DNA of 64,000 nucleotides from Nitrosopumilaceae archaeon (GCA_965200155.1 CBDATR010000010.1:384001-448000); one strand, 5' to 3'. Positions 5,937 to 60,428 are shown, counted from the stretch's first letter. Numbers and translations are program-made. Notes: a model not told the origin generated them from the sequence alone.

Positions 5937-7111
5937 GAATTTGTTGCATAACTCAATCAAGTTAGGTAGATAAATCGTATTGGGAAAAAATTGTGTATTT
6001 CCGTCACACAACCGTGTGTTAGTGACCATTAGATCCAAGCATTAATATCTGAGATTTTTTAACAAGTTTGATGGTATTCACCGACAATGCCAAGTACGTC
6101 CAGCGGGAGGCTATTTGGCTTTGATCATGCATGGGATTGAAAAGGCTAACCATAACAAGGAGGGTGCTCCCTACCAGTATGCCGTGGGCATGTTACATGA
6201 CACTGAGAACGGCATTAGGTGTGAGATACAGGCAGGTATCCGGATTCCTTGCAGGACTACTGGAAGGGTACCAAACCCCGTACTACTCCACATACATACG
6301 CGGAAGGGATAGACATAGACAAGAAGAACAGTATTTGCCTGCACGGACAAAAAGCTGACTAGAACCATGATTGTGGACTCGACCGGCCTTGAATCGTGGT
6401 GAGTGGATTAGAACCAAATGGAAAAAGAGACGCGGATTCATCAGTGCTCGCGGACTGGGAGTGCATATGCATTTACGGTTACCGGCGAGTGGGTTGGGGA
6501 TACGCGCATGTTAAACAATGCAGTACTGGGCTCGTATGCAGAAGAGCCACAACTGGACAGGGAGCACACCCTGGAATTGGAAAGTTCCGGACCCATTGCA
6601 ACAGTTGCCATCCATGGCAGGATCAACAGATAAGCTACCACCCGGAAACGCGCTGACTAACGGTGTGTCCCCCTTACCGAATAATGATGAGAAGCGCGCA
6701 TGCAACCTCGAGTTGCTTGCGGATGGCGCACACGCGTCCAGGGATAACATGAAATTGTGCAGTGATAATCGCATCCGGACAACCATTCCACTTCATCTAA
6801 ATTCCACCAAAGGAAAGGCGACTCATGGGGACTTGCAGTCTTGGAGGAAGCCCGGAATCGCCCATTTTCCGCCTTTCTGATGAGGAAAAGGTCGAAAACA
6901 AGCAGTACTGGAAGGCGGCAAAAGGGTACAACAGGCGATGGCTAATCGAGATAATCAGAGCCGGTTCCCGTTCAAACGACTATTCGGGCACGGATTAATG
7001 GCGCGGAAATGGGATAACATACGAGTGCAACGAGTGGGCGGACACGGCAGTAACGTAGATTACGACATGGGGGAACCTGTATTCTGTCAAAGTCAGTTAT
7101 GCAACAAACTC
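5937..7111 (+). mobile_element. IS5-family (IS903-group) element, transposase pseudogene, copy 1
   Basis: TIRs GAATTTGTTGCATAAC / GTTATGCAACAAACTC; fragments IVDSTGL..GEWIRTKWKKRRGF, LLADGA, YNRRWLIE..FKRLFG; frameshifted; no TSD seen. Confidence 0.85.
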
Positions 7112-7156
7112 GCTCAACTGAGAGGTTTTTAAGTGCGAATCAAATAAGTTGACACA

Positions 7157-8014
7157 ATGAAAGTTTTAATAGCAGTATCAATGCTTACGCTCTTTGTCGC
7201 GACAGCTGCAACAGCAGTCCCAACGTCTTTTGCTGAAGAGTACCGCGTCACAAACGCAGAGGGTTCCTCAACACCCGGTTGTGAGGCGAATAATGAATGT
7301 TTTGTACCTGCATCGCTCACCATAAACGTGGGTGATATGGTAATCTGGGACAACGTTGACAACGCGGCACACACCATAACCAGCGGAGTTCTTGCAGAAG
7401 GCGGACCTGATGGCATCTTTGACAGCGGTCTTGTCAGCCCGGGAACTGAGTTTTCCCACACCTTTGATGATGAGGGTACATTCCCGTACTTTTGCCTAGT
7501 CCATCCCTGGATGAGCGGCGAGGTGGCTGTGATGGCTGCTGGTGGTTCCATGGAAGATGATGAAATGATGATGGATGGTGACATGATATCACTTGAAGAG
7601 GCTAGTGCGATCTCCATGCTGGAGGATACTGAGGTTCGTATCCGAGCCACAGAGCCAACAGTAGCTGATCAGATGGTGATAGATGTTATGTTTGTGGATT
7701 CGGAGCATGTCAATTATGATATAATGATAGCGCAGGAAGGCGCCATTCTATTGGATGATATGGGTGTCCATACACATACTGGCATGGCAACTCACATGAC
7801 TGAACACTTGGACTCCGATAGTCCAGTTGATATCATAATTACTTTCCAAGGATATGGTATTGATGAGAAGACCGGCCCCATAGGTGTGCAATTGGAGTTT
7901 GCACAAGTAGTTCCAGAGTTTGGTACGCTTGTGGCCATGATACTGGCAATAGCTGTAGTATCGGTAGTGGTATTCTCTGCGAGATCTCGACTAAGCATAA
8001 TCCCTAGGTACTGA
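7157..8014 (+). CDS. Plastocyanin-like blue copper protein with PEFG-CTERM anchor
   Basis: Signal peptide; AHT...YFCLVHPWM type-1 Cu site; C-terminal VPEFG + TM + RY. Confidence 0.92.
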   Translation: MKVLIAVSMLTLFVATAATAVPTSFAEEYRVTNAEGSSTPGCEANNECFVPASLTINVGDMVIWDNVDNAAHTITSGVLAEGGPDGIFDSGLVSPGTEFSHTFDDEGTFPYFCLVHPWMSGEVAVMAAGGSMEDDEMMMDGDMISLEEASAISMLEDTEVRIRATEPTVADQMVIDVMFVDSEHVNYDIMIAQEGAILLDDMGVHTHTGMATHMTEHLDSDSPVDIIITFQGYGIDEKTGPIGVQLEFAQVVPEFGTLVAMILAIAVVSVVVFSARSRLSIIPRY

Positions 8015-8016
8015 GA

Positions 8017-8061
8017 TTTCTTATTTTTTCAACATGCGGCGCCGGAGAGGCGCCGCGTTTT
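8017..8061 (+). terminator. U-rich terminator tract followed by a GC hairpin
   Basis: TTTCTTATTTTTTC right after the stop codon; GCGGCGCC-ggaga-GGCGCCGC then GTTTT. Confidence 0.45.
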
Positions 8062-8591
8062 GGGTATTATTAGACATGCCTGACTCATTGTTGCACTCAT
8101 GTGTTGCATCCATGGACTTGGTCAATGGCATGTTATATTTCGCAAGATTTGCGACCATGACGATGGTGATGACGCCGGATGAGTCACATGTTTATGTATA
8201 TGTGTAGGGCGTAGCATCATTTCACAATACACAAGAGCCCGCCAAGATAAAGGCGGATCCACAGTCATCCTGCATGCATATTGTGGGGCTTATACAAATA
8301 CCTGCTGACGCCCTAATGGAGAATTATATAGTTAAGTTACTTGTTGGAGAGTATGGTGAACCATTCCTGGGAGTGATTCACTCTTATACGTGGTACCCTT
8401 ATTATGAAAGCGCGCCAGGCATTTGATACCATTCTAGTCATGGTTGAATAAAGGGGTAACGACCAAATTTTATCTCATGAATTAGCCATTCAGAGGTAAC
8501 TCAGATATATAATTCCCCCCTAATGGAATAAATTCAGGGAAACATGAATTTCATACCATCCTATATTATGTGCAGATCATATCTCTAGTAT

Positions 8592-9173
8592 GTGATAGTG
8601 GCTATTGAGGGTGTAGACCAGTCCGGAAAGCGAACGCAGACAGAGATGCTGACTTCAAGTCTGCAAAGCGACGGGATAGATACGCGCATGTTTGAGTTTC
8701 CCGATTACAACACCCCTGCTGGTCGTCGTATCCATGATGCATTACATGGGGGTCATGCTTCACTAAAAGAAATACACCAACTACAGGCAGAAAACCGCAG
8801 GGAGAGAGCAGACGACATAAGGGATGCGTTGAAGTGCAATCAAGTCCTAATAATGAATCGGTACTGTGACTCTAATATTGTATATGGACTCGCCAACAAG
8901 ATGGACAGGGAATGGCTAGTAAGTCTAGACTCGGACATGCCTAAGGCAGACATGGTCATACTCTTGGATATAGATGCTGAGGAGTCATTCAGGCGAAAGA
9001 CACGCCGGGACAAATTTGAGTCCAACAAAGATCTCATAAAAATGGTCGTAAATCTATATCGCGACGAGGCAAGGAATGCAGGCTGGATAAGGGTGGACGG
9101 AACTCGCGAACCTGATGTTATACATGCGCAGATTTTGAAGATTGTACACGCCAGCTTGGAAGGTTGCAACTAA
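8592..9173 (+). CDS. tmk: Thymidylate kinase
   Basis: IEGVDQSGKRTQ P-loop, FPDY, MNRY..S..YG. Confidence 0.92.
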   Translation: MIVAIEGVDQSGKRTQTEMLTSSLQSDGIDTRMFEFPDYNTPAGRRIHDALHGGHASLKEIHQLQAENRRERADDIRDALKCNQVLIMNRYCDSNIVYGLANKMDREWLVSLDSDMPKADMVILLDIDAEESFRRKTRRDKFESNKDLIKMVVNLYRDEARNAGWIRVDGTREPDVIHAQILKIVHASLEGCN

Positions 9174-9345
9174 GTCATATGCTAGAGGCTGCCTGTAGTG
9201 TTATCTCCCATACGTACTGATTGGCATTACATTTTGCGGCGCGTATTTACGCCAAGACAATTCTGGACGCACATTGTCGGAATTTGATACTCTGGTTATA
9301 GTCAACTCATCAGGTTTATATGCAAAACCGCCGTTATACCATATT

Positions 9346-9801
9346 ATGGGCATAATACGCGGTATTGCCATGGAGGCCAGTCACAAGGCTCGCCAAAAGA
9401 CTGGCTGTTCTGCATTACCTAAAATAATAGACTTTGCAGGAAAGAATATGGAACAAGTACTGGCATCCCGAACCCAGGAATTTTACGAGTTTATACTGCC
9501 CCCTGTGGACCTACAAAGTGGAGACGGAGTAATCATAGTGAGTGTGGACTTGCCGGGATACAATCGGGATCAAATCAAGATAAGGATGAGTGGCAATGTT
9601 CTCTCCATAAGTGGACAGCGAGATCCCGTTGAAAATACAATATATGCTCAGCGACCTAATGTTATACACAAGGACATACGATTGCCCACTCACATAAAAC
9701 GCGGCGAAGAGCCCGAGTGCTCGGCTAGCCTGGATGATGGGGTACTTCGCGTAACTGTGCCCATACCCCAAAGCGGTATAGATATTTCCATTAACAACTA
9801 A
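9346..9801 (+). CDS. Small heat shock protein (Hsp20 family)
   Basis: PPVD..VDLPG..DDGVLRVTVP alpha-crystallin domain; start chosen at ATG 9346, about 25 nt below TATA-like TTTATATG. Confidence 0.88.
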   Translation: MGIIRGIAMEASHKARQKTGCSALPKIIDFAGKNMEQVLASRTQEFYEFILPPVDLQSGDGVIIVSVDLPGYNRDQIKIRMSGNVLSISGQRDPVENTIYAQRPNVIHKDIRLPTHIKRGEEPECSASLDDGVLRVTVPIPQSGIDISINN

Positions 9802-9839
9802 CTCTTGGTATGTGCAGCATCAATAGTAAGAAAAGTTTC

Positions 9840-9931
9840 GTATGAGTTCACGTCTTCCGGAATCTTGTGCACAAATCATATTAACTGTCGCGATCAGTTG
9901 TGCGTAAATTTAGACACAGGTGAACTCATAC
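9840..9931. mobile_element. IS66-type MITE (92 bp), TSD AAAGTTTC
   Basis: TIR GTATGAGTTCAC...GTGAACTCATAC; identical 8-bp flanks. Confidence 0.95.
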
Positions 9932-9946
9932 AAAGTTTCACCATTT

Positions 9947-11473
9947 TCAGTTATTACTTTTCTGCCTAACAAATAGTGCCATTATTAACAACGATAGAAC
10001 CATTCCAAAAACTCCCTCATACATGCCTACTGCATAGATTAGTGCTGACCCAAAAAATACCGATGCGGAGAATATTCCACCGCCAACTAAGTTACTCTTG
10101 TTGTGTGTCCGGCTCCTGCCCATAAACTCCCGTATCTCCGGAATCAATGTTACTGCCGCGTCCAGCGAGCCCAACAGGCGTCCGAACTGCCCCTTCATCT
10201 CCTCCACATACCCGTCCCATGCCATATTCTCCTGGTCCAGAATATCCCGCAAGACTGTCACAAAACGAAAGTCCACCTTGTGGGTCTTGTATATACCCTC
10301 TATTATGGAGGCCATTCTCATATAGAGCGCCAAATTTTTGGGTAACAGAAACGGAAAGCGGCTCATAGTGCGGTTTGCTAGCTCCATGAGCCCTCTCACC
10401 TCTACCTCGTCCGGCCTTCTGCCATGCATGGCTTCGATGGTAAGTTGCATGGCCTTCTCCATCACACTTCTGTCATATCCGGGAGCAAGCATGCCTAACT
10501 CGTCCATCGCGTTGATAGTGCGTGATGGGTTCCTGTCCACCAGCGCCAAATACAGCCGTATGAGCCTTATCCTAGTTGTCTGGTCCAACCGGCCTACCAT
10601 CCCAAAGTCGTACAGGATTATCCGCCCTTGCGTGTCCACCGATATGTTGCCTGGGTGTGGATCCGCGTGAAATAGCGAATGGCGCAACAACATGGTAAAG
10701 AAAACACGATGAATATCCACTATGAGCGACTTGCGGTCTATACCCCTCTTGTCCAAGGCTTCTACATCGGTGATTTTGATCCCTGGCATGTACTCCATGA
10801 CCAGAACAGATTCTGTAGAGTACGTCTCATACATTTGTGGAATCCGTACATTCTTGTATTCTTGCATGTTCTTCTTTATGGTCTGTAAGTTGGCCGCTTC
10901 CTTAACATAGTCCATCTCTTCCTGTATGGACTCGATAAATTGCGACAGTATGGCTTTGGCGGAGAATCGCAAGTTGGGGTCTACAAACGTCAATGCCCGA
11001 GGCAGGACCCTGCTTAGTACGGCAATGTCCAAGTCCACTACCTTCTTGATACCGGGCCGCCTGATCTTTATCACTACCTCCTTGCCCGCGAGCCTTGCTC
11101 TGTATACCTGCCCTAGGGAAGCTCCGGATATGGCCTCTGCATCTATGCTCTCAAATATATCATCTATGACACCTAACTCCTTCTCCAATATCGACTTTAC
11201 GTCCTTAAACGGAGCAGCAGGAACATTATCCTGTAGCTTGGCTAGCTCTATCATGTATGGCTGTGGGAGTATGTCTGCCCTGGAGGAAAGCCATTGTCCC
11301 AGTTTTATGTAGACCGGGCCCAGTGACACAAAAGCTCTTAGGGCCCTGTTGGCGTTCTTTGTGTACTTGGCATAGCTCCCCCGGTTATGAGACCACCTCT
11401 TCCTGTCCCGGCGCAGGGCCAAAATTACAGGCAAAAGCCGGACTAATACTTGCGCCGTCCTGATGATGGGCAA
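9947..11473 (-). CDS. AarF/UbiB/ABC1 family atypical protein kinase
   Basis: GPVYIKLGQWLSSRAD, ASLGQVYRA, HADPHPGN, DFGM; likely TTG start at 11473. Confidence 0.92.
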   Translation of the reverse strand: MPIIRTAQVLVRLLPVILALRRDRKRWSHNRGSYAKYTKNANRALRAFVSLGPVYIKLGQWLSSRADILPQPYMIELAKLQDNVPAAPFKDVKSILEKELGVIDDIFESIDAEAISGASLGQVYRARLAGKEVVIKIRRPGIKKVVDLDIAVLSRVLPRALTFVDPNLRFSAKAILSQFIESIQEEMDYVKEAANLQTIKKNMQEYKNVRIPQMYETYSTESVLVMEYMPGIKITDVEALDKRGIDRKSLIVDIHRVFFTMLLRHSLFHADPHPGNISVDTQGRIILYDFGMVGRLDQTTRIRLIRLYLALVDRNPSRTINAMDELGMLAPGYDRSVMEKAMQLTIEAMHGRRPDEVEVRGLMELANRTMSRFPFLLPKNLALYMRMASIIEGIYKTHKVDFRFVTVLRDILDQENMAWDGYVEEMKGQFGRLLGSLDAAVTLIPEIREFMGRSRTHNKSNLVGGGIFSASVFFGSALIYAVGMYEGVFGMVLSLLIMALFVRQKSNN

Positions 11474-11475
11474 GC

Positions 11476-11850
11476 CTATTTCCTCTTTAGCGAACTGGCT
11501 GTATCCATTCCAATCTTGAATAATATTGGCACTAGTATTGCTCCTGCAATTATACCTACTAGCAGAGAGCCGGTTTCTTTCCTTACCGCATTTCCGGCAT
11601 ATATGCCAACTGCGCCGCCTAGAATGCCTCCCAGAAACTCTGGCGCATCGTGTACTATGTGCCCCACCGGATCCTGGCGGGGATCCACTGTATCCTCGTG
11701 CATGGTATAATGATCTTTGTATTCTCGTATGTGCATCCTGCCATGTCTGTACTGCTTCATGGCGCCTTGGAGATGTCCCATCCAAGTCTCCTGCATCTTG
11801 TCTAGTATCGGTTCTCCTGCATCTTTGCGAATTATTATCTCTCTTGCCAT
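11476..11850 (-). CDS. Hypothetical membrane protein with glycine-zipper
   Basis: H.REY.DHY..H.D.VDP..DP.GH..HDAPE then GGILGGAVG TM segment; stop abuts the kinase start. Confidence 0.65.
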   Translation of the reverse strand: MAREIIIRKDAGEPILDKMQETWMGHLQGAMKQYRHGRMHIREYKDHYTMHEDTVDPRQDPVGHIVHDAPEFLGGILGGAVGIYAGNAVRKETGSLLVGIIAGAILVPILFKIGMDTASSLKRK

Positions 11851-12470
11851 ATGTGTATGTAAGTTGAGTGTGGTTATAACATGTTTGTGCCAATATCCTG
11901 GAAAATCAAGAGTGTGAGTTCCCCTGTGCTCCACACAATTGAGTAGAGTGTGAACAATGGCAGTGACCCTTTAGGCCAGCCCTAAGATGGTGCCCAGCTC
12001 ACAAATCGTATTGGCGTCGTTGTTCAGTGCGTAAATGTAGAAATAGGCAAGTTCATCTTGTGTGACAATGATGCCCATTCCGGTTTACTGTTAGACGATA
12101 CGTTCAAGCTAGTCGTAAACTTGGAATTTGAGCTACTCAGGTATTGCATAGCTACTTTGGGGGGACTTGAACGGTTACCTCATGATAGTAACCGTTTAGG
12201 TCGCGTTAAAGATCAACACCTAGACGGTAAATTCATGGGCATATGGCAGTCACCATAAGTCTTGACGGTGATTTTCCATAAAATATCACAACAGGGATGG
12301 CAGACAGGCTGAATCAGCAGATGTAAGTAATGTACTCTACCATACTTTATGGACATGGAATACTTCATGATGAGTTTAGCGGCGTATAATGACTGTGCAT
12401 ATGTATGGGCCTCGCGCACAAAAATCCACCACTTATTCCCTGATCAGAGTGACATGAAATGGTGTACCAA

Positions 12471-13254: not shown

Positions 13255-13346
13255 GTGTGAGTTCACCTGTGTCTAAATTTACGCATAACTGATCGTGACA
13301 GTTAATGTGATTTGTGCATAAGATTCCAGAAGACGTGAACTCATAC
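13255..13346. mobile_element. IS66-type MITE (92 bp), no TSD
   Basis: GTGTGAGTTCAC...GTGAACTCATAC; flanks GATTTGCG / CATACGTT differ. Confidence 0.93.
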
Positions 13347-15319: not shown

Positions 15320-15420
15320 GTATGAGTTCACCTGTGTCTAAATTTACGCATAACTGATGGAACAGGTTGTTCTAGTTAATGTGATTTGTGCATAAGATTC
15401 CGGAAGACGTGAACTCATAC
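15320..15420. mobile_element. IS66-type MITE (101-bp variant), TSD CTTTAGTG
   Basis: TIRs intact; identical 8-bp flanks. Confidence 0.95.
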
Positions 15421-15476: not shown

Positions 15477-15577
15477 GTATGAGTTCACCTGTGTCTAAAT
15501 TTACGCACAACTGATGGAACAGGTTGTTCTAGTTAATGTGATTTGTGCATAAGATTCCGGAAGACGTGAACTCATAC
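15477..15577. mobile_element. IS66-type MITE (101-bp variant), no TSD
   Basis: TIRs intact; flanks TCTCTCTT / AAGTATTT differ. Confidence 0.93.
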
Positions 15578-15582
15578 AAGTA

Positions 15583-26602: not shown

Positions 26603-26701
26603 GTATGAGTTCACGTCTTCCGGAATCTTGTGCACAAAAGAACCGGTTCTTTAACTGTCGCGATCAGTTATGCGTAAATTTAGACACAGGTGAACTCATA
26701 C
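26603..26701. mobile_element. IS66-type MITE (99-bp variant), left arm of a composite unit
   Basis: TIRs intact; left flank AAAATTCG. Confidence 0.93.
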
Positions 26702-26867: not shown

Positions 26868-26966
26868 GTATGAGTTCACGTCTTCCGGAATATTGTGCAC
26901 AAAAGAACCGGTTCTTTAACTGTCGCGATCAGTTGTGCGTAAATTTAGACACAGGTGAACTCACAC
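26868..26966. mobile_element. IS66-type MITE (99-bp variant), right arm of a composite unit
   Basis: TIRs intact; right flank AAAATTCG. Confidence 0.93.
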
Positions 26967-35602: not shown

Positions 35603-36654
35603 GTATGGGTTCACCTGTGTCTAAATTTACGCATAACTGATGGAACCGGTTACCAGTTAATGTGATTTGTGCATAAGATTCCGGAAGTCAATAGTACGAA
35701 AAGTAAGTCCGCTTAGGATCCGGTGTACAGTAGTTCAGATTGCGCAAACCACGAAAGGCTATGGTAAATAGAATAACAGAGGAATCAAGACAAAAGAGGC
35801 GTTGCCGCTACCAAAATAGCTCAAGACCTGAAACAAGACACGTACGAAGATTGTGAACCAGAGGACGGGAACGACTCGAGTAAAGATAGGCAGGCTCATG
35901 ATACCAATCACCGCCACCCAGATACGAATGGTAACTGAAGCATACAGCAAGGATCCCGCCGGAGTAGTACGTATTGCAAAGAGGCTTAGACAGAATTACA
36001 ATATATCGCGCAGTATATCGCATAATGAAAAAGAACGGTACAGCAGGATCATCACCTGCAGAGTGGGTACGCTATGAGCGTAAATATTCCAATGCAATGT
36101 GGCACTGGCATGTCATGAAAGATGAGCGCTTCAGGGGACTGAATCTCATAGATGATGCATCCAGGTGTATAGTCGGAGCGGCACTATTTGAGCATGCAAC
36201 CTCAGAGAACGCCGTTCTATTACTGAGACTGGCAATGAAACGATTCGGCGCCACTGCATCTCGGATAACGGCGCGTGTTTCGTAGGACAATAAAAGGGCA
36301 AAAAGAACTGGAAACCCACACTATTCGAGGAAGAACTGCTGGATCAAGACATCATACTAATCAATTTCAGACCATACCACCCGCAGACAAATGGCAAACG
36401 GGGGCGCTTCCATGGAATGATTGAGGACGAGATATGGTATTATGACAGTCTCCGGGATTATGTGGACTACTACAATGAGAGAAGGTTGCACGTCTCACTG
36501 GATATAGATAACGGCGAAACGCCGCTTCAGGAATAAAAAGGCGACCCAGACAATTAGGGCAAATGATGCAAAATGGATGGAGCGGGATGCCAATGACTAG
36601 CGGACCGACTTTTCACACATTACACACAAGATTCCGGAAGACGTGAACTCATAC
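35603..36654. mobile_element. IS66-type MITE, TSD AAACTGAA, interrupted by an IS481 copy
   Basis: Left part 35603-35687, right part 36625-36654; identical outer 8-bp flanks. Confidence 0.92.
35688..36624 (+). mobile_element. IS481-family element, defective copy B, 16-bp TSD CA(T/C)AAGATTCCGGAAG
   Basis: Same ends and motifs as copy A; duplicated 16 bp of MITE sequence. Confidence 0.9.
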
Positions 36655-47119: not shown

Positions 47120-47211
47120 GTATGAGTTCACGTCTTCCGGAATCTTGTGCACAAATCACATTAACTGTCGCGATCAGTTGTGCGTAAATTTAGACACAGG
47201 TGAACTCATAC
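47120..47211. mobile_element. IS66-type MITE (92 bp), TSD TCGAGTTG
   Basis: TIRs intact; identical 8-bp flanks. Confidence 0.95.
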
Positions 47212-47529: not shown

Positions 47530-48403
47530 GTATGAGTTCACGTGTTTTGATCACATAATAAGATAGAATGCATCCCAGTTTTTTTAATTATAACTGCATT
47601 CTGGCAGCAACCTCGTTCATAACAGAAAGGCCTTGAGCCCTCCATGTCTGAACACATGATACGAATGTGGACATGCGGCGCATTGCCCTTTCGCCACCCT
47701 TTATCTGGCCACTAATCTTGCGGAATACCACTGCGTATCGCAAAGCCTGCTCCGCTGGATTGTTGGTGGGCTCTACACTGTCATATTCTAAGAATACGAA
47801 CATGCCGGGTATGGCCTTATTCAATCCTTTTACCTTCTTTTGCAGTTCAGTATCATCAACATCACAGTACTGATGCATCTGCTCCTGTCTCAAATGAGTG
47901 TCGTAATTGCGCGGACGGCCCGCAGTGATTCAGGGATTCCCGTGCGCTCCGGAACAATCCTTTCAGGTCGTTGTCAAGTTTGATCCGGGCGTCCTGATCA
48001 CCGGGATCAATATAGAATCCTGCATGTAATATACTGGTATCGCGCAATAAATGCGCCCAACACAACTGGTGCTTCCCACCGTCATCAAACCGGCGGTACA
48101 CAACGTACCTGTCCGTTACTATCGCTCCCTGGTAACCGTTCAGGTATTTGTTCACTACATTTGAACTCCTACTTTTGTCATATATGGACATCATCCACTC
48201 TTCGGCTCGCATCCCCCATACCCAGCCACGCCTACCCGCCAGTGATATACCAGTTTCGTCCACATGAATGCTGGGTGATTTTATTATATTTTCATGAATT
48301 GTTTCCATAAATGATTCACATGCATCGGCGGCCCTGGCAATTATGTTGTTTACTGCACCCACCGATATATTTAGGCCGAAGAGATCCTTCGAAATTACAG
48401 GTA
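47530..48403 (-). mobile_element. IS66-family element A, 3' half; transposase pseudogene truncated by a MITE
   Basis: IHVDETG, IVTDRY..Y, HQLCWAHLLR, PTNNPAEQALR..V..RK; TIR GTATGAGTTCACGTGTTTTGATCA. Confidence 0.9.
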
Positions 48404-48504
48404 GTATGAGTTCACCTGTGTCTAAATGGAACGGGTCATTCTATAACTGATCGCGACAGTTAATGTGATTTGTGCACAAGATTCCGGAAGACGTGAACTC
48501 ATAC
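48404..48504. mobile_element. IS66-type MITE (101-bp variant), no TSD
   Basis: TIRs intact; flanks TACAGGTA / AATGGTTT differ. Confidence 0.93.
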
Positions 48505-48928
48505 AATGGTTTTACTCTAGTTGTTCTATATAAGTACGGTCCTATACCCGGCAAAGACTTATGGTGGGCGCTATACATCCTGAATTTCTCCATAGACATC
48601 AATGATTGTTCTATATTTTATCATAATATATAGATATATATACAATTAAACTATGCAATATAAAACATGTAAATTAACAATAGTATGTGCAATATTGTGA
48701 CTTGGGCGTACTATTGCCAGGGACATGGGCGAATGTATTTACCATATTCGACTCGGCCATATTCTACTTCGGTAGCCCGCGTTCAGGTCATGTTTTATGA
48801 CGTCACAAATGCTCACGTTTGGATATCTGATCTTTTACTCGATCTAAACGGTTACACTCGGCAGAGTCTGATCGTGTATGATGTTGTCTCATTTCACGGT
48901 ATATGGAAATTAATCTGGAGAAACAGGC

Positions 48929-50495
48929 GAGTTTGTTGCATAACTGACTTTGACAGAATACAGGTTCCCCATGTCGTAATCTACGTTGCTACCGCGTCCA
49001 CCCACTCGTTGTACTCGTATGTTATCCCATTTCCGCGCCATTAATCCGTGTCCGAATAATCGTTTGAACGGGAACCGGCTCTGATTATCTAGATTATCCA
49101 TCGCCTGTTGTACCCTTTTACCGCCTTCTAGGTATGAGTTCACGTGTTTTGATCATACGATGAAACTTGATATGACAATATTTGGTTAAATTGTAGTATG
49201 AGCAGACGCCGGCCATGAGGAACTGCAAATCTCCGGATACCCTTGCGTCTACCAAGAGAGATCTTGCACACTACAAGGAACGTGTAAGAAGCAGACATAA
49301 CATAGAAAAAATGCGTTTAGAAATTATGTAAATGAATTGGAAGGAAAACAAGGGAAAATTGCGGTAATCATGGCTCGGCTTATATGAGAATGCTCACTCT
49401 CCACCATCCCTCCAGTACAAGCATGAGGTTGCTATAAGAATGCAGTTATAATTAAAAAAACTCGGATGCATTCTATCATATCATATGATCAAAACACGTG
49501 AACTCATACCCTTCTAGTACTGCTTGTTTTTGGCCTTTTCCTCATCAGAAAGGCGGAAAATGGGCGATTCCGGGCTTCCTCCAAGACTGCAAGTCCCCAT
49601 GAGTCGCCTCTCCTTTGGTGGAATTTAGCTGAAGTGGAATGGTTGTTCGGATTCGATTATGACTGCACAATTTCATGTTATGCCTGGACGCGTATACTCC
49701 ATCTGCAAGCAACTCGAGGTTGCATGCGCGCTTGTCATCATTATTCGGTAAGGGGGACACACCGTTAGTCAGCGCGTTTCCGGGTGGTGACTTATCTGTT
49801 GATCCTGCCAGAGATGACAACTGTTGCAATGGGTCCGGAACTTTCCAATTCCAGGGTGTGCTCCCTGTCCAGTTGTGGCTCTTCTGCATACGAGCCCAGT
49901 ACTGCATTGTTTAACATGCGCGTATCCCCAACCCACTCGCCGGTAACCCTAAATGCATATGCTCTCCCAGTCCGCGAGCACTGATGAATCCGCGTCTCTT
50001 TTTCCATTTGGCTCTTATCCACTCACCACGATTCAGGGCCGGTCGAGTCCACAATCATTGGCCCTCGTCAGCTTTTTGTCTGTGCCGACAATCATGCCAT
50101 TCCCCTTGTTAATGTCAAGATCTTTTCCGCGTCTGTATATTGTGGAGTAGTGCGGGGTTTGATGCCCTTCTAGTAGTCCTGCAAGGAATCCGGATACCTG
50201 CCTGTATCTCATACCTAATGCCGTTCTCAGTATCATGTAACATGTCCACGACATACCGGTAGGGAGCACCCTCCTTGTTATGGTTGGCCTTTTCAATTCC
50301 ACGCATGATCAAAGCCAAATAGCCTTCCGCTGGACGTACTTGGCATTGTCGGTGAATACCATCAAGTTTGTTTAAAAAATCTCAGATATTAATGCTTGGA
50401 TCCAAGTTAGTAATCACTGACAGAATAAACGAAAATACTCAAACCTTTTCACATACATTTTTGATCTAACTTGTTTGGAGTTATGCAGCAAACTA
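48929..50495 (-). mobile_element. IS5-family (IS903-group) element, defective copy 2, TSD AAACAGGC
   Basis: Highly similar to the reverse complement of 5937-7111; TIR GAGTTTGTTGCATAAC; carries a 378-bp insertion. Confidence 0.88.
49132..49509 (+). mobile_element. Internally deleted IS66-A derivative (378 bp), TSD CCTTCTAG
   Basis: 26-bp TIR GTATGAGTTCACGTGTTTTGATCATA; right end matches 47530-47610; YENAHSPP N-terminal remnant. Confidence 0.92.
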
Positions 50496-50884: not shown

Positions 50885-52723
50885 GTAACCGTTTAGGTCG
50901 CACCATGACTTAACCATATATTCTGATTAGTCCAATACACGACATATGGAAGACCCCGAGGTTGAGATTCTACGGGACAAGTTAGCCAAGGTCATGGCTG
51001 AATAAGAAAGAAACACCAAAATGAAGAGAAAGATTTGATTATCCGCCGGTTGTCTTAGAGGGAGGATCTGGAGTCAACCAATGCGAGGAAACGTAAAGAA
51101 TTGGCATTGCGTGAGGAATATTTAGCTCAACTAAGGTAGCAGCTCAACCGCAAGCACATACTAATTTGCTCAATAACTGACGGATGGTACATCCAGAAGT
51201 CAAAATACTGCGAGACAAACTAGCCGGATCTATAGGCGCTAACGGTAAACTGATCAGAATAATCAAAGGGAAAGACATGATCATCGAGATACAATCAGAG
51301 AGGATTACAAGGTTGGAGACAGACAAGACAGAATTGAAGATAATACTCGCAGCGAGGGATGTGGAAGTAAAATCATTAAAGAATCGTCTCCGATACTATG
51401 AAAGCCCGCATACCCCAACCATCACAGAACTCCATTCAGAAGATGAAAAAAGCCGCAAAGAAAAAGGTAAACGCCACTCAAGCGAGGCCGGAGGAGCGGG
51501 CACCCAGGAAAATCCCACAACAGAAGGCCTGGCAAAATAGTCCGCAAGACCCCTGACAGGTGTTCAAAATGCGGCTCTAAAAACCTGGAAAAGACCGGCA
51601 ACACCACAACAGACATACCCGTTATTCCGAAAGCCGAGGTTACCGCGCACATAATAGAGGAGTGCCGGTGCCTAGAAGTCATAACATTACGGATATGGTA
51701 CATGAACCCGGAGTGATCCCGGGCACACAATTTGGACCCAACTTATTGACCATGATCACCACTGCATATTACAATGGTTCCACACTGCAGGGTATCGCGT
51801 ACACCATGAAAATGTACGATGCAGGCTCCTGCAAGGCAGCAATACAGCACACCATGGAAGCTGCATCTGAAAAAATGGAGAAAGAGGTGGGAAAAATCCG
51901 GGAGGATTTGGCCAAATCCTAGACCATACTGATGGACGAGACCCCCCTCTCGCTGAACGGCAAGACTGTATACGCGTGGGCGTGCAGTGGAAATGACAGC
52001 ATAGCATACAAGCTGGCCACCTCACGCTCATCGGAGATAATCAAAATGTACTATTCAGACATACTGGACAAGCTAATCACGTGTGACGGATATGCCGGAT
52101 ATAACATATTTTACAATATACGAGGTGCTGGGCACATATTACGGGAATCAAAAGATGCATCCGAGGCCCGGCCCACCGGAAACATTACATAAAATGCTTC
52201 AGGATATACGCCGAGGCCCGGGACTTGAATCCTGAAGAGACGACTCCGGATATCCTAGATTCGTTCGAGATACGTGTGCTCTCCATAGCCACCCGGTGGC
52301 AAAAGCTGGGTGTAAAATTCGGCAATAAGCTGGAAGGGCATCTCCAAATCTGTTTACATTCCTGCGCTACCCCGGAATGGCACCCACTAATAACGAGTCT
52401 GAGCGCGTGCTGCGCCGCTTCGTCATACATCGCAAGATACGCATGTCTTGGGGCTCATACAAGGGTATGAAGGTAGTAGAGAACATCCTGACCTGCATGA
52501 GTATGAGTTCACCTGTGTCTAAATTTACGCATAACTGATCGTGACAGTTAATGTGATTTGTGCACAAGATTCCGGAAGACGTGAACTCATACCTGCATGA
52601 TGACGTGGAGAAAGCGCGGACTCAACACAGATACTGTCCATACTTGGGGCAAGTTAAACGACCATACCAAGAACAATCTGGTGTAGTGCATTTCTCTTTG
52701 CTAAGGGTGACCTAAACGGTTAC
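50885..52723 (+). mobile_element. IS66-family element B, transposase pseudogene
   Basis: TIR GTAACCGTTTAGGTC / GACCTAAACGGTTAC; flanks (A/G)GTTGGTGT; YESPHTP, PGTQFGPNL, MDET, TCDGYAGY, TNNESER.LR. Confidence 0.88.
52501..52592. mobile_element. IS66-type MITE (92 bp), TSD CTGCATGA, inserted in IS66-B
   Basis: TIRs intact; identical 8-bp flanks. Confidence 0.95.
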
Positions 52724-52773
52724 GGTTGGTGTCATCTGTCAACCTTTAAAATATGGTCCGCATTGCCGACCAT

Positions 52774-55799: not shown

Positions 55800-56815
55800 C
55801 TCTGTGGCTGGTGGGTCTGGGTATATCTGGAAGGGAATCCGTTCCTGATGCTACGTCTGGCGCCCTCTCAATGTGTGATGTGGTGTACTTGGAGACCTTT
55901 ACCAGTCCGGATATTGACACCACATGGATACGGGAGGTAAATCCCAATGTAATACAGGCCAAACGCTGGATGGTGGAGGATGGTAAAAGAATACTGGATG
56001 ATGCCCGGAATCGCGAGACGGCCCTGGTATCTTATGGTGATCCACTGGTCGCCACAACCCATACAGACTTGCTGGTTCGTGCCGCAGCCGGGGGCATACC
56101 CACCAGGGTGGTACACGCCTCCTCTGCCGTGTCCAGCATAGTGGGTCAGTGCGGCCTGCATCACTACAAGATGGGGCGCATGGCTACAATAATGGATGAT
56201 GCCAAGTCCCTGTCTACCCCATACTATGTCACGTATCGCAATGCAGTACGGGGCAGTCACACCCTGCTGTTGCTGGAGTATAATCAGGACGGCGGCTTTT
56301 TTCTGGATCCTGCCGGGGCCCTGGATCTCCTGCTAAAAACAGAGACTGGTCAGAATCGCGGTGTCTTTACACCTAGCTCATTCTGCATTGTGGCATCCAG
56401 AGTGGGATTGCCAGATCAGACCCTGATATCAGGTAATATATCCAGCATGGTGCGGCGGGATTTTGGTCCTCCACCACATTCGATAATTGTGCCCGGCGGC
56501 CTGCATTTTACCGAGAGGGATGCATTACTGGCGCTGACCCAGTGTGTGGACGAACCGCCACCGGAAGATACCTACATTACCTCAATACCGCAACAAATGC
56601 TGAGGCGTTATATACCCATGATACATAAATCAATATCCGAAATACAGGTGACTTCGGAGAATGTTGACATAATACAAAACGCGCAGTTATACGTACAAGA
56701 CGCGGAGCGGGCACTGGATAGTGGCCAGGACGAGGTGGCCGTACTCAGTATAGGATACGCGGACGGACTGGTGGATGCAATAAGGATTATGAAGGGAATG
56801 GATCCCAAGCTATAA
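55796..56815 (+). CDS. dph5: Diphthine synthase with C-terminal DUF357-like domain
   Basis: YLETFTS, GDPLVATTH, HT.LLL, PPH.IIVPG.LHF.E; Y..DA....D..A..SIGYA.G..DA tail. Confidence 0.9.
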   Translation: MTLWLVGLGISGRESVPDATSGALSMCDVVYLETFTSPDIDTTWIREVNPNVIQAKRWMVEDGKRILDDARNRETALVSYGDPLVATTHTDLLVRAAAGGIPTRVVHASSAVSSIVGQCGLHHYKMGRMATIMDDAKSLSTPYYVTYRNAVRGSHTLLLLEYNQDGGFFLDPAGALDLLLKTETGQNRGVFTPSSFCIVASRVGLPDQTLISGNISSMVRRDFGPPPHSIIVPGGLHFTERDALLALTQCVDEPPPEDTYITSIPQQMLRRYIPMIHKSISEIQVTSENVDIIQNAQLYVQDAERALDSGQDEVAVLSIGYADGLVDAIRIMKGMDPKL

Positions 56816-56829
56816 TATTTCCCGCAATC

Positions 56830-57447
56830 ATGTGTGGTGCTGTGGATGCAATCAGGAATGATATACTAATGGCCGCCTACATCGCACATATATCCGGCGT
56901 CTCACTCCGTGATACCTGTACCGCCCGCGGCATAGTGATACATGAGCCCCACCTTGATATCATGATACGTGATGGCCTACTACATGATAATTACACCCTG
57001 ACTACATTGGGCAGGCAGTCAATACGGGTGGTGCTGGCTGGCGGGGTATTTGACATAATACATCCCGGTCATATACACACGCTGGAGTCTGCCCGCCGTC
57101 TCGGTGATGTTTTGGTAGTGGTTCTTGCCACCGACTCTACGGCCATACGTATGAAGAGACGCTCCCCGTTACACTCTGCACAGCAGCGACGCACCTTGGT
57201 GGGTTCCCTTCGTATGGTCGATATGGCTATGGTGGGAAGCCATGAAAGTATATTCAAAACAGTGGAAGCGGTAAAACCGGATGTGGTTGCCTTGGGATAC
57301 GATCAGGTCCATCATGAAAAATACATATCTGACGGTTGCCGCAAGATTAATCCCAGCATTCAGGTGGCGCGTCTACAGTCCCCGGTCCCGGACATATCAA
57401 GCTCAGATATAGAGCGTCAGTATGCCCAAAGCATACACGGTATCTAG
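56830..57447 (+). CDS. ribL: FAD synthetase (cytidylyltransferase family)
   Basis: GGVFDIIHPGH, LVVV.A.D, PD.VALGYDQ, SSS; next to ribK. Confidence 0.85.
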   Translation: MCGAVDAIRNDILMAAYIAHISGVSLRDTCTARGIVIHEPHLDIMIRDGLLHDNYTLTTLGRQSIRVVLAGGVFDIIHPGHIHTLESARRLGDVLVVVLATDSTAIRMKRRSPLHSAQQRRTLVGSLRMVDMAMVGSHESIFKTVEAVKPDVVALGYDQVHHEKYISDGCRKINPSIQVARLQSPVPDISSSDIERQYAQSIHGI

Positions 57448-57866
57448 GGCAGTGATATGGTGACCGGTGAGCCATCTACAAGTGCGGCCTCTTTCCTTAT
57501 GTTTGTGCCTGATATGATTTCCGCTATGTCATTTTTGTGATGCGTCTTCTCCAACTGTATGTAGTAGCAGGGTATGTCTGGCTCCAGTGCCCCGGCAAAA
57601 CAGCGTACCCATCCATAGTCTCGCCCGTCTCGGGTAAATCCCGGTAACAGTATACTCCTACTCACATCCAAATCCTGTATCATTATCGCTGATGACTGAT
57701 CAAGTCTTATGTTCAAAGTTCCGGGAAAAGGTACCAGATTCAGATATTGCCTGAACTGTGTTTCATATAGTGACATGTATTGCGCTCCCTCACCTTTTCC
57801 CTGCGACACCACTCCATTCAAGATGGTGTGACTTTCTGAATCATTTTTTGCGGTCATACCTGACAT
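57444..57866 (-). CDS. ribK: CTP-dependent riboflavin kinase
   Basis: G.V..G.GEG..Y, PFPGTLNI, THH...EIIS. Confidence 0.9.
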   Translation of the reverse strand: MSGMTAKNDSESHTILNGVVSQGKGEGAQYMSLYETQFRQYLNLVPFPGTLNIRLDQSSAIMIQDLDVSRSILLPGFTRDGRDYGWVRCFAGALEPDIPCYYIQLEKTHHKNDIAEIISGTNIRKEAALVDGSPVTISLP

Positions 57867-58024
57867 ACCCTTGGTTGTAAATAATGTCCTTTGGGCGTGT
57901 CATGGTGGGGAAACTTTTGGGTCATGCATGTTGGGCCGGGATGACTCTGCAATGACTCATGGGTGGGATCAATCTGCGGACTACTGACCCGCATGAATAT
58001 TAAATAAAATAATGTCAAGTGTTA

Positions 58025-59167
58025 TCATGGTATGTTAAGATCCGAGAACGTTGCAAGAAATACTCCGTCCGTATTACTCACTTTGGATATGCGATGACCT
58101 ACCAAATACTTGATACCGGAACTCTTGGCGTTGTCCAACAATCTTTGTGTAACTATGCCGTCCAGCAACAGAAAGGTAATTCCGCTCTGCTCTGAGATTT
58201 TGTTTACAAGCTCGCTTATGGGCACACGGAATACCTGCTTATGTTGATCATCAAAGGCTACGGCCTCTAGAGTCTCAGATAGTTTTGGATAGATATTTGC
58301 TACTAGGTCTCGTACAGCCTTCTCAGTTGAGTCCAGCTCCCTAAGTGGAGCGTCTCCTGCCTCTATCTGTTTTGCAATGGGGCGCAGTATCTCGTCAATG
58401 CGCTGTGGCGTCAATTCTTCAACTTCTATGCCGGGATCTGCCCGTATCTCATAGTCTACAGAGACCACGGACTTTAATCCCTTCAGGATGAAACCGCCCG
58501 CGCGATCCCCGTCGGTAAATGCTACTATCTTGTCTTTGGAAGAGCACAAGTCTCGTATAGACTCATCTATCTTTGCTCCCTCGATGGCTATTGCGTTGTC
58601 ATAACCGGCTCTGAGCAGATTAATGACGTCTGCACGTCCTTCTACCAATATTATCCAGCTATTCTCGTATACTCCCAATCCACAGGCCAGCCTAGACGGT
58701 CCATAGGCGCCAAGCTTACCAGTGGAGCCTTGGTGTACATCCTTGAGCATGGATTCACCTTCGCTCACGGTTTTGGTAGCCCAGCGTTGTTTTATCTCCT
58801 TGGCCCGCTTAACTATGTCATCCTTCTTTGCCGCGCGTATGTCATCGATGGATTCCAGCCTGTAACTACAATCAAAGGGACCCACCTTGTCTATACTTTC
58901 TATAGCAGCTGCTATGAGTGCGCATGTGTCTATGTCGGTACCCATTGGTATGGCTACTTCGCCTGCGGTCGAGTTCGATGAAGAGCGAGAGTTCACCTCT
59001 ATACGACCGACCTTGGAAACTCGTTGTAACTCGTTGAGATTCATCTCTGGACCCAGCAAACCCTCGGTCTGACCGAAGATTGAACCTATTACATCGGTTC
59101 TTTCAACAAGTCCGTCCACATTGAATGAGAGCCTAACATTATATTTGATGATGCCAGTTTGTGGCAT
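58025..59167 (-). CDS. dnaG: Archaeal DnaG-type primase (exosome-associated)
   Basis: DVIG.IFGQTEGLLG, VEGRADVINLL, DGDRAG TOPRIM. Confidence 0.95.
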   Translation of the reverse strand: MPQTGIIKYNVRLSFNVDGLVERTDVIGSIFGQTEGLLGPEMNLNELQRVSKVGRIEVNSRSSSNSTAGEVAIPMGTDIDTCALIAAAIESIDKVGPFDCSYRLESIDDIRAAKKDDIVKRAKEIKQRWATKTVSEGESMLKDVHQGSTGKLGAYGPSRLACGLGVYENSWIILVEGRADVINLLRAGYDNAIAIEGAKIDESIRDLCSSKDKIVAFTDGDRAGGFILKGLKSVVSVDYEIRADPGIEVEELTPQRIDEILRPIAKQIEAGDAPLRELDSTEKAVRDLVANIYPKLSETLEAVAFDDQHKQVFRVPISELVNKISEQSGITFLLLDGIVTQRLLDNAKSSGIKYLVGHRISKVSNTDGVFLATFSDLNIP

Positions 59168-59505
59168 AAATCTATCAACTCCTGATTTATCACATTTGAA
59201 TTTGTCATACTGCCTTATATGAGGCTATCGTTTTTATGATATTTGTTAATCCAAGATTCTATTTCATATGTAATGGCTTGTAATATTTTATAATTAAAAC
59301 AGCAAAATTATATAACCTAATTTTTGTACATGATTTAGCCAGAATGATAAAGCCTGCTCCATGAAAAATTAATGTGTTATCTAGTGTACAAATTATTGAT
59401 CATTGCTCGCTGTCGCGCGTAAATGTGGATCAAGTGAATTATACGAGTTTGAAATAATAGGATCCATATAATACACGGGAATATAAAAAGCGAAATAATA
59501 TGATT

Positions 59506-59856
59506 TTATTCCGTACTAAAGGAATGTCCACAGGAGCAGGATTTTACCACGTTGGGATTGTTTATTTTGAAGCCGGATCCCATGAGACTTTCTATATAGT
59601 CTACGTTGGCTCCCTTTAGATGATCTATGCTGTAGCTGTCTACCAATAGTTTGACACCGGCTTCTTCTATTACCAAGTCATCATCCTCTGGTGCTTTTTC
59701 AAAACCCATGCCATAAGAGAGACCAGAACAGCCGCCGCCCTGCACATAGACGCGCAGGTACCCCGGTTTTTCCGACTCCTCTGCCATGAACTCTTTGATC
59801 TTGGTTGCAGCTTTCTCTGTTACTGTGACAATTTTTTGTGTCTGTTCAACTGACAT
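59506..59856 (-). CDS. HesB/IscA/ErpA Fe-S carrier protein
   Basis: GGGCSG.SY, NPN...CSCGHSF. Confidence 0.95.
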   Translation of the reverse strand: MSVEQTQKIVTVTEKAATKIKEFMAEESEKPGYLRVYVQGGGCSGLSYGMGFEKAPEDDDLVIEEAGVKLLVDSYSIDHLKGANVDYIESLMGSGFKINNPNVVKSCSCGHSFSTE

Positions 59857-60062
59857 TATGTATCCCATTTACACCTCTAAATATAATAACCTTATCCATT
59901 GGACAATGGACAATATTCAAATAGGCAGGTAAAACAGCAACACACAAAATAATTACGTATAAAATCCATAGAAATAGCATATCCCTAATCAAAAACAGGC
60001 AAAGCATTCCCGGTTAACATGAGGTATGATCACAATTACAACAGTAAAACACAAGATTTAGG

Positions 60063-60154
60063 GTATGAGTTCACCTGTGTCTAAATTTACGCATAACTGA
60101 TCGTGACAGTTAATGTGATTTGTGCATAAGATTCCGGAAGACGTGAACTCATAC
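60063..60154. mobile_element. IS66-type MITE (92 bp), no TSD
   Basis: TIRs intact; flanks GATTTAGG / GCTGGTTT differ. Confidence 0.93.
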
Positions 60155-60327
60155 GCTGGTTTTCCTGCCTCAATTCCCCGTAGGTCAGGCGTCTGACCAT
60201 CATACACCACTTAAAAATTTGGTATTTAAGCACTCGGTCAATATTTAATTAAAACATATCAACTTTCACAATCTTCCGGAGAGATCGACCTATTTGAATC
60301 GTCTCCATTATGTTGAATAGTATTTTT

Positions 60328-60428
60328 GTATGAGTTCACCTGTGTCTAAATTTACGCACAACTGATGGAACAGGTTGTTCTAGTTAATGTGATTTGTGCA
60401 CAAGATTCCGGAAGATGTGAACTCATAC
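60328..60428. mobile_element. IS66-type MITE (101-bp variant), TSD GTATTTTT
   Basis: TIRs intact; identical 8-bp flanks. Confidence 0.95.

Follow-up and report, generated by a model that had tools for sequence, protein, structure and literature searches.

A short palindrome that replaces target bases in miniature transposable elements and transposase genes of a Nitrosopumilaceae archaeon

The DNA considered here, referred to below as the window, is a stretch of 64,000 nucleotides from a Nitrosopumilaceae archaeon (GCA_965200155.1 CBDATR010000010.1:384001-448000; G000:C10:384001-448000 in our own numbering). It forms part of a 2.38-Mb assembly of 51 contigs with a G+C content of about 47% and a completeness of 87.6%; the public sequencing runs which contain it are sponge metagenomes from two studies. 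The window holds twelve copies of a 92-bp MITE (a miniature transposable element with inverted repeats), two dead insertion sequences (IS) of the IS5 type and a partial copy of an IS66-family transposase gene. Within nine of these elements lies the subject of this analysis, a palindromic cassette of 12–15 nucleotides (nt) which at the MITE sites stands in place of a few of the element's own bases. The letters A to D designate the cassette site within the MITE, and numerals the variants at one site. The features are as follows, with positions counted from the first nucleotide of the window.

15320..15420, plus strand: MITE of 101 bp with an A1 cassette, GGAACAGGTTGTTCT at 15359-15373 in place of the loop bases CGCGAC (6 nt) in the central hairpin
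15477..15577, plus strand: MITE of 101 bp with an A1 cassette at 15516-15530
60328..60428, plus strand: MITE of 101 bp with an A1 cassette at 60367-60381
26603..26701, minus strand: MITE of 99 bp with a B cassette, AGAACCGGTTCT at 26639-26650 in place of TGTGA at the central hairpin's 3' base
26868..26966, minus strand: MITE of 99 bp with a B cassette at 26904-26915
35603..36654, plus strand: MITE with an A2-type cassette, GGAACCGGTTACC at 35642-35654; an f4 element of about 1 kb is nested after approximately MITE position 78, and the right end of the MITE lies at 36625-36654
48404..48504, plus strand: MITE of 101 bp with a C cassette only, GGAACGGGTCATTCT at 48428-48442 in place of TTACGC at the central hairpin's 5' base
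5940..7111, plus strand: dead IS5-family (IS903-type) copy with many frameshifts; AGAGCCGGTTCC at 6957-6968, between RWLIEII and FKRLFG
48927..50492, minus strand: second dead IS5-type copy with the same cassette at 49071-49082, divided in two by an element of 378 bp whose ends are those of the MITE (49132-49509)
47530..48403, minus strand: partial IS66-family transposase copy with the empty allele TATCGCAAAGCCTGC at 47736-47750
9840..9931, minus strand: canonical 92-bp MITE with empty sites
13255..13346, plus strand: canonical 92-bp MITE
47120..47211, minus strand: canonical 92-bp MITE
52501..52592, plus strand: canonical 92-bp MITE
60063..60154, plus strand: canonical 92-bp MITE, the reference copy

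An earlier, sequence-only reading of the window had found cassettes in seven of the twelve MITE copies. Our recount agrees (A1 three times, B twice, A2-type and C once each), and all nine cassette positions that it gave proved exact on re-checking. For each cassette the number expected in shuffled sequence is 0 to 0.05. The bases replaced in the window MITEs are CGCGAC or CGTGAC (6 nt), TGTGA (5 nt) and TTACGC (6 nt). At these sites target bases have been lost without duplication, as that reading had stated, and neither slippage nor duplication-forming transposition explains the pattern, which it had also concluded. Since the canonical bases are not a substring of the cassettes, neither allele is a simple deletion of the other. 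Its treatment of the seven copies as separate events fails; they are members of subfamilies amplified throughout the genome.

The MITE takes its ends from an IS66-family element, with which it shares the terminal 12–14 nt (GTATGAGTTCAC) and nothing further when compared with a 1674-bp IS66 copy; the transposase of this family matches PF03050. Target duplications of 8 bp, allowing at most one mismatch in the eight, flank 262 of 419 canonical copies, 39 of 63 copies with A1 and 27 of 37 with B. The MITE was not found in the genomes of 30 relatives, and scans of wider sets of metagenome and genome contigs, from which records of this genome were left out, yielded no usable locus. As carriers, an IS66-type MITE and dead IS copies are ordinary; a stereotyped palindrome of 12–15 nt is not.

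The exact core of the cassette, RGAACCGGTTCY, occurs 110 times in the genome, and the same pattern read backwards, which served as a control, occurs once. Fifty-six of the 110 lie in MITEs, 51 in other repeats and three in unique DNA. With repeated DNA defined as the MITE or self-matches of at least 150 bp, which together make up 28.4% of the genome, 107 of the 110 thus fall within repeats, and the suspected preference for mobile DNA is borne out. The three motifs in the unique 72% represent the chance level, and one of them consists of the first codons (MNRFY) of an ordinary open reading frame (ORF). The same core was found 0–2 times in each of 30 relatives and 0–7 times in each of 400 other genomes of the class, including three unpublished genomes (2, 1 and 1); in the genome with seven (G222) all lie in Pro/Glu-rich coding repeats. 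Among palindromic 10-mers GAACCGGTTC is the second commonest in the genome, with 113 occurrences. That the same palindrome stands at unrelated sites was likewise confirmed, these being four MITE positions, the IS66 transposase gene, two IS5-type sites and a repeat family designated f3. The restriction to mobile DNA is real, and most of the count goes back to some ten founding events whose products were amplified.

With the reference MITE as the query, blastn returned 631 matches, 567 of them full length. Their lengths are 92 bp (399 copies), 99 bp (59), 101 bp (66), 107 or 108 bp (4), 116 bp (1), 119 bp (5) and 122 bp (2). Exact cassettes are present in at least 139 of these 567, one to three in each, at four fixed positions: A1 in 67 (plus two with one change), A2 in 19, B alone in 38, C alone in one, C with B in four, C with B and D in one, C with B1 and D in five, and C with B2 and D in two. 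The sole C-only copy is that at 48404..48504 of the window. Expressed as subfamily totals among the full copies this gives A1 67+2, B 43+7, A2 19, C 13 and D 8. Site D is absent from the window copies; here CCGG (4 nt), the centre of TTCCGGAA, has been replaced by GGAACCGGTTCC. B1 (AGAGTAACCGGTTCT) and B2 (AGAGTAACCGGTTACTAT) are grown forms of B which differ from it by 3-nt additions, in the left arm and then in the right arm. No intermediate forms exist among the MITE cassette alleles.

The subfamilies are regionally clustered. A1 accounts for 28 of the 69 MITEs on contig C34, for 10 of the 149 on C10 and for none of the 36 on C31, and neighbouring MITEs have the same cassette state in 72% of 219 pairs, as against 59% expected (sd 3.4%). 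The mean pairwise difference within the cassette classes is 2.3–2.7%, versus 3.7% among canonical copies. Because of this clustering and lower diversity we regard most copies as inherited subfamily markers rather than as independent events, and about ten founding events have given rise to roughly 250 cassette copies.

The main haplotypes of the MITE are set by linked T/C polymorphisms at positions 32 and 65. Canonical copies are TT (107), CC (97), TC (22) or CT (12); those with A1 are TT (24), CC (13), TC (5) or CT (6), those with B TT (18), CC (12), TC (2) or CT (2), and those with A2 CC (10) or TT (5). Each of the common cassettes is found on all the main haplotypes. The polymorphisms themselves do not cluster regionally, neighbour concordance being 0.54–0.56 with 0.50–0.52 expected, while the cassettes lying between them do.

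Several further observations concern the MITE as a target. In some copies (G000, C5:9177-9311, C24:4448-4582 and C5:89735-89881) the right part is duplicated from position 50/51, the left edge of site B, and in a B-type copy the duplicate begins exactly at the cassette; this suggests a hot-spot of breakage, or a pseudo-end, at that edge. The f4 element, about 1 kb long, has been inserted repeatedly at the same place, around MITE positions 63-78, in copies of every cassette state (in the window at 35688-36624, and at 11 other loci). An IS of the DDE_Tnp_1 type, with ends AGACCTTATGCGCA, is nested at MITE positions 46-48 (AGT) in at least three copies. On account of these repeated insertions we consider the MITE to be a target hot-spot for two other elements.

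Folds were predicted with ViennaRNA for the commonest copy of each class, RNA parameters standing in for DNA. The central MITE hairpin is predicted to be TAACTG-ATCGCGA-CAGTTA. Site A is its loop, sites C (25-30) and B (52-56) occupy mirror positions just beyond the base of its stem, and site D is the centre of the 8-nt palindrome mentioned above. Where a copy holds C as well as B, these two cassettes pair, and C and the reverse complement of B1 agree in 11 of their 15 positions. With RNA parameters as a proxy, the predicted fold energy falls from -29.5 kcal/mol in the canonical copy to -37.6 with C+B, -43.6 with C+B+D and -47.9 with C+B1+D. A1 is the sole cassette that folds on its own (-3.3 kcal/mol), and between A1 and C there is one double change from A-T to G-C, which is a single pair among few variants. 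Short inverted repeats also flank the sites in IS66, in the IS5-type element, in f3 and in a diverged IS5-type copy on contig C43, although this was noticed only after the fact.

The consensus patch may be written RGAAC-(N)-GG-T..GTTCY; it measures 12–15 nt, or up to 18 nt in B2, and has CCGG or ACCGGT as its core. The number of bases lost differs among sites, being four at D, five at B, six at A and C, seven in IS66 and eight in the C43 copy. The end bases vary as well (A/G...C/T), with all four combinations represented. Mirroring of one arm by the other is seen in C versus B or B1 and in the symmetric growth from B through B1 to B2; the founding cassettes have no template in cis.

In the IS66 transposase gene 68 copies span the cassette site, 29 of them empty (..TATC GCAAAGC CTGC..) and 39 filled (..TATC AGAACCGGTTCCA CTGC..). 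The cassette here, with the core RGAACCGGTTCY, stands in place of 7 nt within a conserved motif and introduces a stop codon. Read in the coding direction the empty allele, ..NNPAEQALRYAVVFRK.., specifies ..NNPAEQALRY.. within an intact ORF of 473 amino acids (aa), and the filled allele specifies ..NNPAEQWNRF-stop; the match to the PF03050 profile spans 14-277 in an empty copy versus 14-264 in a filled one. A FastTree phylogeny of 38 long copies, with the cassette site masked, shows that the older lineages are all filled (13/13), and that in a young clade seven filled copies are scattered among 18 empty ones (7/25). The young filled copies retain the SNPs (single-nucleotide polymorphisms) of their clade at -46 and +33 nt from the cassette, and co-conversion of these flanking markers was not seen. 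One of three processes is needed for such a pattern: conversion over tracts of less than about 80 nt, transfer from one young copy to another, or insertion that recurred at a single site.

The same gene shows another change, an 8-nt deletion in the natural quasi-palindrome AGAATCCATTCT, by which ..ETGAESILHQ.. becomes ..ETGADASVL-stop. About 20 copies of each form are present, and the partial copy of the window (ORF end, 47862-48362, minus strand) has the deletion, which ends its ORF at ..ETGADASVL*.

The IS5-type element presents the cassette in a second coding context. The sequence-only reading had reported that the RWLIEII..FKR motif is broken in both window copies, and this holds throughout the genome: all 28 copies that span the site have 14–20 nt between RW[LI]IEII and FKRLFG, so that the Y-R-E-K motif is interrupted. 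The spacers are 14, 16, 17 or 20 nt long, in comparison with 9 nt in intact relatives, which leaves 5, 7, 8 or 11 extra nt. Most include AGAGCCGGTTCC or AGAACCGGTTCC; those of three diverged subfamilies include AGAATAGGGTTCT, AGAATAGTGTTCT or AAAGCGGTGTTCT. Homologues occur in 31 of 300 genomes of the class that were searched. Six of these loci, from other genera, were inspected; five are open frames of 242-411 aa, and all five have exactly three codons at the site (ISA, FSA or FSI; 9 nt). The copies in the present genome are otherwise full of frameshifts. The broken ORF pieces gave no match in a Pfam search, and a PF01609 search of this genome finds another, intact IS family; the label 'IS903 group' that had been given to the element is nevertheless reasonable, as the intact relatives match PF01609 and PF13737.

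As judged from these alignments, the empty allele is ancestral for both the IS66 and the IS5-type element. The empty allele corresponds to conserved functional codons in IS66 and in the IS5 outgroups, and this excludes derivation of all variants from one longer ancestral MITE, a possibility by which the earlier interpretation could have been overturned. An archaeal bulge-helix-bulge mini-intron, or recoding, in the IS5-type element was also considered; it is ruled out by the extra lengths of 5, 7, 8 and 11 nt, and in the MITE bases are replaced, not added.

Other families carry the palindrome too. The diverged IS5-type copy on contig C43 has AGAACCGGTTCT at a different place, 15 nt standing where the main family has 8. 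In f3 the place of GACGGT, found in six diverged paralogues, is taken in six copies by AGAACCGGTTCC, an in-frame difference. Cassette-like motifs were noted in f2 (5/5 copies) and f4 (about 90 copies), for which no empty allele is available for comparison, and the same applies to the right end of the IS5-type element (window 7080-7100 and other copies), which reads GGAACC(T/G)GTATTCT. A second small hairpin insert was encountered in f4 (about 1 kb, about 90 copies), namely a 27-nt GGGACTCTTATTTAAGAGTCCAATGAG which follows ..ATTGAGGACGAG and adds TAA in the frame read; 45 copies are filled and 39 empty, and empty forms are present in the window at 36420 (plus strand) and 43012 (minus strand). 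The 378-bp element with MITE-type ends (49132-49509) sits about 50 nt from the cassette of the second IS5-type copy.

A donor element and an enzyme were sought in the assembly. When every occurrence of RGARCNG was scanned, no repeated downstream sequence with varied upstream sequence emerged. The terminal sequences of IS66 (GTATGAGTTCAC), the IS5-type element (GAGTTTGTTGCATAACT) and the nested DDE_Tnp_1 IS (AGACCTTATGCGCA) all differ from the cassette. PF01797 (Y1/HUH transposase) had no match in this 87.6%-complete genome, the control being positive in 6 of 14 genomes, and PF00078 (reverse transcriptase) matched only a broken fragment on contig C50. No site-specific endonuclease was identified. 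PF01867 detected one Cas1, at C9:69442-70278 in a 555-aa open frame, beside a CRISPR array of 288 repeats (G000:C9:71030-92100). Three of the 287 spacers match elsewhere in the genome and none matches the MITE or the IS66 sites. Some 30 matches to the zinc-ribbon domain of TnpB/Cas12f were found (e.g., G000:C10:489795-490355), most of which are C-terminal fragments of about 430 bp that are about 80% alike; they suggest a decayed or miniaturised TnpB-derived repeat family. GGAACCGGTTACT lies near three TnpB matches, and a link to TnpB was rejected when this turned out to be normal coding sequence for the C-terminus of TnpB. The literature that was searched contained no account of 12–15-nt palindromes replacing target bases in archaeal transposons.

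We incline, with rather more doubt than conviction, towards an explanation in which the repair of a break or stalled fork copies a self-complementary patch in one step, the patch being spread later by transposition and gene conversion. The patch would be written in a single step over 4–8 bases of a mobile element that already belonged to a small hairpin, either in its loop or at the base of its stem. A break would occur, or a fork would stall, at the hairpin and a few bases would be lost; the gap might then be filled by copying an existing cassette elsewhere, or the opposite hairpin arm, through template switching or very-short-patch conversion, which would require no transposase and leave no target duplication. 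The new palindrome would extend the local hairpin. IS66 transposase could subsequently mobilise the cassette-bearing MITEs and, in trans, dead IS copies, giving rise to the MITE subfamilies, and gene conversion might carry the cassette to other haplotypes and to other IS66 copies. Our inferences are that a break occurred, that copying was templated and that gene conversion took place; the replacement of bases itself, its direction in IS66 and the IS5-type element, the confinement to repeats, the amplified subfamilies and the location of the MITE sites on the hairpin are matters of observation. Repair junctions are favoured over those of a recombinase or transposase because there is no duplication, the ends are imprecise, and both the losses and the lengths vary. 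Arm-to-arm copying is a known signature of template-switch mutation, by which hairpins are made and perfected in one step, according to PMC8794818. A break-repair origin had been offered as the second alternative of the sequence-only reading, and this part of it is compatible with the findings and close to what we consider the best interpretation. Its first alternative, the footprint of a longer element with GGAAC.../...GTTCT termini, did not hold, since no repeat family has such ends.

Several points weigh against repair as the source. The same 12-mer, approximately, stands at eight or more unrelated sites, and the founding events in MITE sites B and A and in IS66 had no template in cis; this stereotypy points to a preferred donor or a specific activity beyond generic template switching. 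The flanks of donors and recipients are identical, so that recurrent de novo insertion at the same site may have occurred as well. Cassette state is nearly independent of two linked SNPs only 8–20 nt away, which is easier to obtain by site-specific insertion than by ordinary conversion. The IS5-type change, taken by itself, can be read as a pure insertion of 7–11 nt upstream of a pre-existing TTC, with no deletion. The rule that the sites lie on hairpins is a post hoc one, in view also of how frequent short inverted repeats are, the fold energies were derived from RNA parameters, and in a genome 87.6% complete an enzyme could lie outside the assembly.

The recurrence of one 12-mer at unrelated sites lends some credit to a rival which we think improbable but deserving of attention, that the cassette is itself a mobile element of 12–15 nt which enters single-stranded hairpin loops site-specifically by means of an enzyme or of an RNA or oligonucleotide intermediate, and spreads as very small dispersed repeats do in Nostoc, or else homes into empty alleles. 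Such an element would account for an identical sequence at eight or more unrelated sites, for the interspersion of filled and empty alleles in the IS66 tree, and for cassettes on all MITE haplotypes in roughly the proportions of the haplotypes; the contrast between the older IS66 lineages (13/13 filled) and the young clade (7/25) fits progressive conversion, and the A-T to G-C change between A1 and C is one compensatory pair. It has to contend with the lack of a candidate enzyme (no Y1/HUH match, a single Cas1 by the CRISPR array, a reverse transcriptase fragment only), with imprecise junctions, with unique DNA (72% of the genome) that holds three of the 110 exact motifs, at chance level against a control count of one, and with regional clustering and reduced class diversity which fit inheritance. 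Slightly less probable still is the proposition that nothing special has occurred, a few old and unrelated complex indels having made similar GC-cored palindromes whose number was raised by their carriers and by gene conversion. Replacement-type indels are indeed plentiful, 1832 distinct examples having been recovered in the repeat self-comparison, 338 of them with a hairpin of at least 5 bp, and GAACCGGTT is ordinary Glu-Pro-Val coding sequence in host genes (a 39-bp tandem repeat at 2828-3570 and the repeats of G222). Chance convergence on one 12-mer at so many sites is very unlikely, however: 10–12 identical bases are common to eight or more sites, the genome has 110 motifs against 0–7 in 400 genomes of the class, and GAACCGGTTC ranks second among its palindromic 10-mers.

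We attach little credence to excision footprints, in which a transposon with RGAACC.../...GGTTCY termini would have departed leaving both tips behind. A palindromic scar of two inverted tips is what an element with terminal inverted repeats is expected to leave, and other IS do nest repeatedly in the MITE near the cassette sites; yet the motif opens no repeat family whose upstream sequence varies, IS66, the IS5-type element and the nested IS all have other termini, and the scars lack a target duplication and have lost target bases. No more credible is host-directed inactivation of transposons, a defence-like activity that would recognise hairpins and write a stop-bearing palindrome. Both protein-coding cassettes do destroy motifs of the catalytic domain, AEQALR becoming WNRF-stop in 39 of 68 IS66 copies and the Y-R-E-K spacing of IS5 being frameshifted in 28 of 28, and the 27-nt hairpin insert with its in-frame TAA in another IS family (45 filled, 39 empty) might be viewed similarly. 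The spread of the MITE was not stopped, however, the cassette classes being young and having target duplications; no associated gene was found; and survivorship bias accounts for insertions being seen where they are harmless to the host. Finally, adapter sequence or misassembly, which would have invalidated the earlier reading, can be set aside almost entirely. It is true that the genome is a 51-contig assembly of sponge metagenome data. Against this, more than 200 copies stand in distinct unique flanks and the subfamilies agree among themselves. Position 26647, within a B cassette, is covered by Logan contigs of four runs from two studies (depths 260.7, 3376.8, 7902.3 and 89), and the B1 variant is present in two of these runs, which belong to different studies. 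The Logan contigs end about 27–30 nt inside every MITE and speak neither for nor against in-situ conversion at a given locus.

In comparison with known systems, the cassettes resemble IS66-family MITE subfamilies inasmuch as the 92-bp MITE has IS66 ends and 8-bp duplications and the cassette types act as subfamily markers. Ordinary MITE subfamilies differ by point changes and internal deletions; here one stereotyped palindrome occupies four positions and is common to unrelated IS families. Homing or biased gene conversion moves insertions between repeated alleles, and the filled and empty alleles in otherwise identical copies, as well as the scattering of filled IS66 copies in the tree, are reminiscent of it. 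Unlike a homing system, no endonuclease was identified in this genome, the insert is 12–13 nt and non-coding, and flanking markers were not seen to be co-converted. The repeats SDR1-8 (small dispersed repeats) of the Nostocaceae (Elhai et al. 2008, Genome Res 18:1484) are reportedly hairpin-shaped sequences of 21–27 nt dispersed in many contexts. They are said to be nested in MITEs and in their own copies, to be restricted to one lineage, and to be regarded as mobile although no enzyme is known for them; their hairpin is reportedly conserved, with compensatory changes in support. By that description they are the closest described relatives of the idea of a mobile cassette, sharing with it very short palindromes nested in MITEs and other repeats, MITE copies here having two or three cassettes. 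Unlike them, the cassettes are 12–15 nt rather than 21–27 nt, overwrite 4–8 target bases, and are almost confined to transposable elements (107/110) with no dispersal into unique DNA beyond the chance level. Passages of PMC5861425 and PMC3116915 refer to the Nostocaceae SDRs.

Template-switch or quasi-palindrome mutation (Monttinen and Loytynoja 2022, PMC8794818) has in common with the cassettes a short one-step replacement that makes or perfects an inverted repeat with no duplication, and the symmetrised hairpin arms (C versus B; B1 and B2) are similar. Classical template switching copies sequence from a few to a few hundred bases away in cis, whereas the cassette patch turns up again at loci that are unrelated and lack a local template. 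The REP/REPIN sequences (Bertels and Rainey 2011, PMC3116915), which are extragenic, 20–40 nt long, arranged as singlets or inverted doublets and associated with a Y1/HUH RAYT gene, are similar in being short GC-rich palindromes present in many copies with no target duplication. In contrast to them, PF01797 has no match here and the cassettes sit within the MITE, within transposase ORFs and within further repeats.

Were the palindrome itself a propagating unit, which we consider doubtful, it would be the smallest mobile DNA described, homing into the hairpin tips and stem bases of transposons and overwriting a few bases. It would then progressively knock out the IS66 and IS5-type transposase genes and stiffen the MITE hairpin, and might be regarded as a parasite of parasites or as a device of the host against transposons. 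If the cassettes are spread by any directed process, DNA in this genome moves at a scale below the size of any known mobile element, and transposases are silenced naturally by a stereotyped stop-bearing patch of 13 bases. Even on a conservative view, the approximately 570 MITE and 68 IS66 copies with their filled and empty alleles constitute a countable natural record of the single-step creation and lengthening of DNA hairpins and of the travel of a patch between repeats, with a bearing on the origin of REP-like palindromes, MITE hairpins and structured RNAs. As the organism recurs in sponge metagenomes of at least two studies, the system can be tested directly with long reads.

Two minor observations may be added. 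In a dead IS5-type copy outside the window, at G000:C25:4690-4890, a foreign insert of 36 nt is flanked by a direct duplication of 36 bp, whose end coincides exactly with the boundary of the cassette. Over 27 nt the insert matches spacer 57 of the array on contig C9 with a 9-nt offset, the array having a repeat of 37 nt and spacers of 34–38 nt; the arrangement resembles an ectopic integration of a spacer by Cas1-Cas2 beside the palindrome. The other concerns the 39-bp tandem repeat of the window, which is present in 14 copies at 2828-3570, within an ORF at 2599-3795, and specifies an Ala/Glu/Pro/Val-rich repeat. It contains AGAACCGGTTGT, the first ten bases of which are the cassette core, and is thus a possible natural source of the cassette, or a coincidence.

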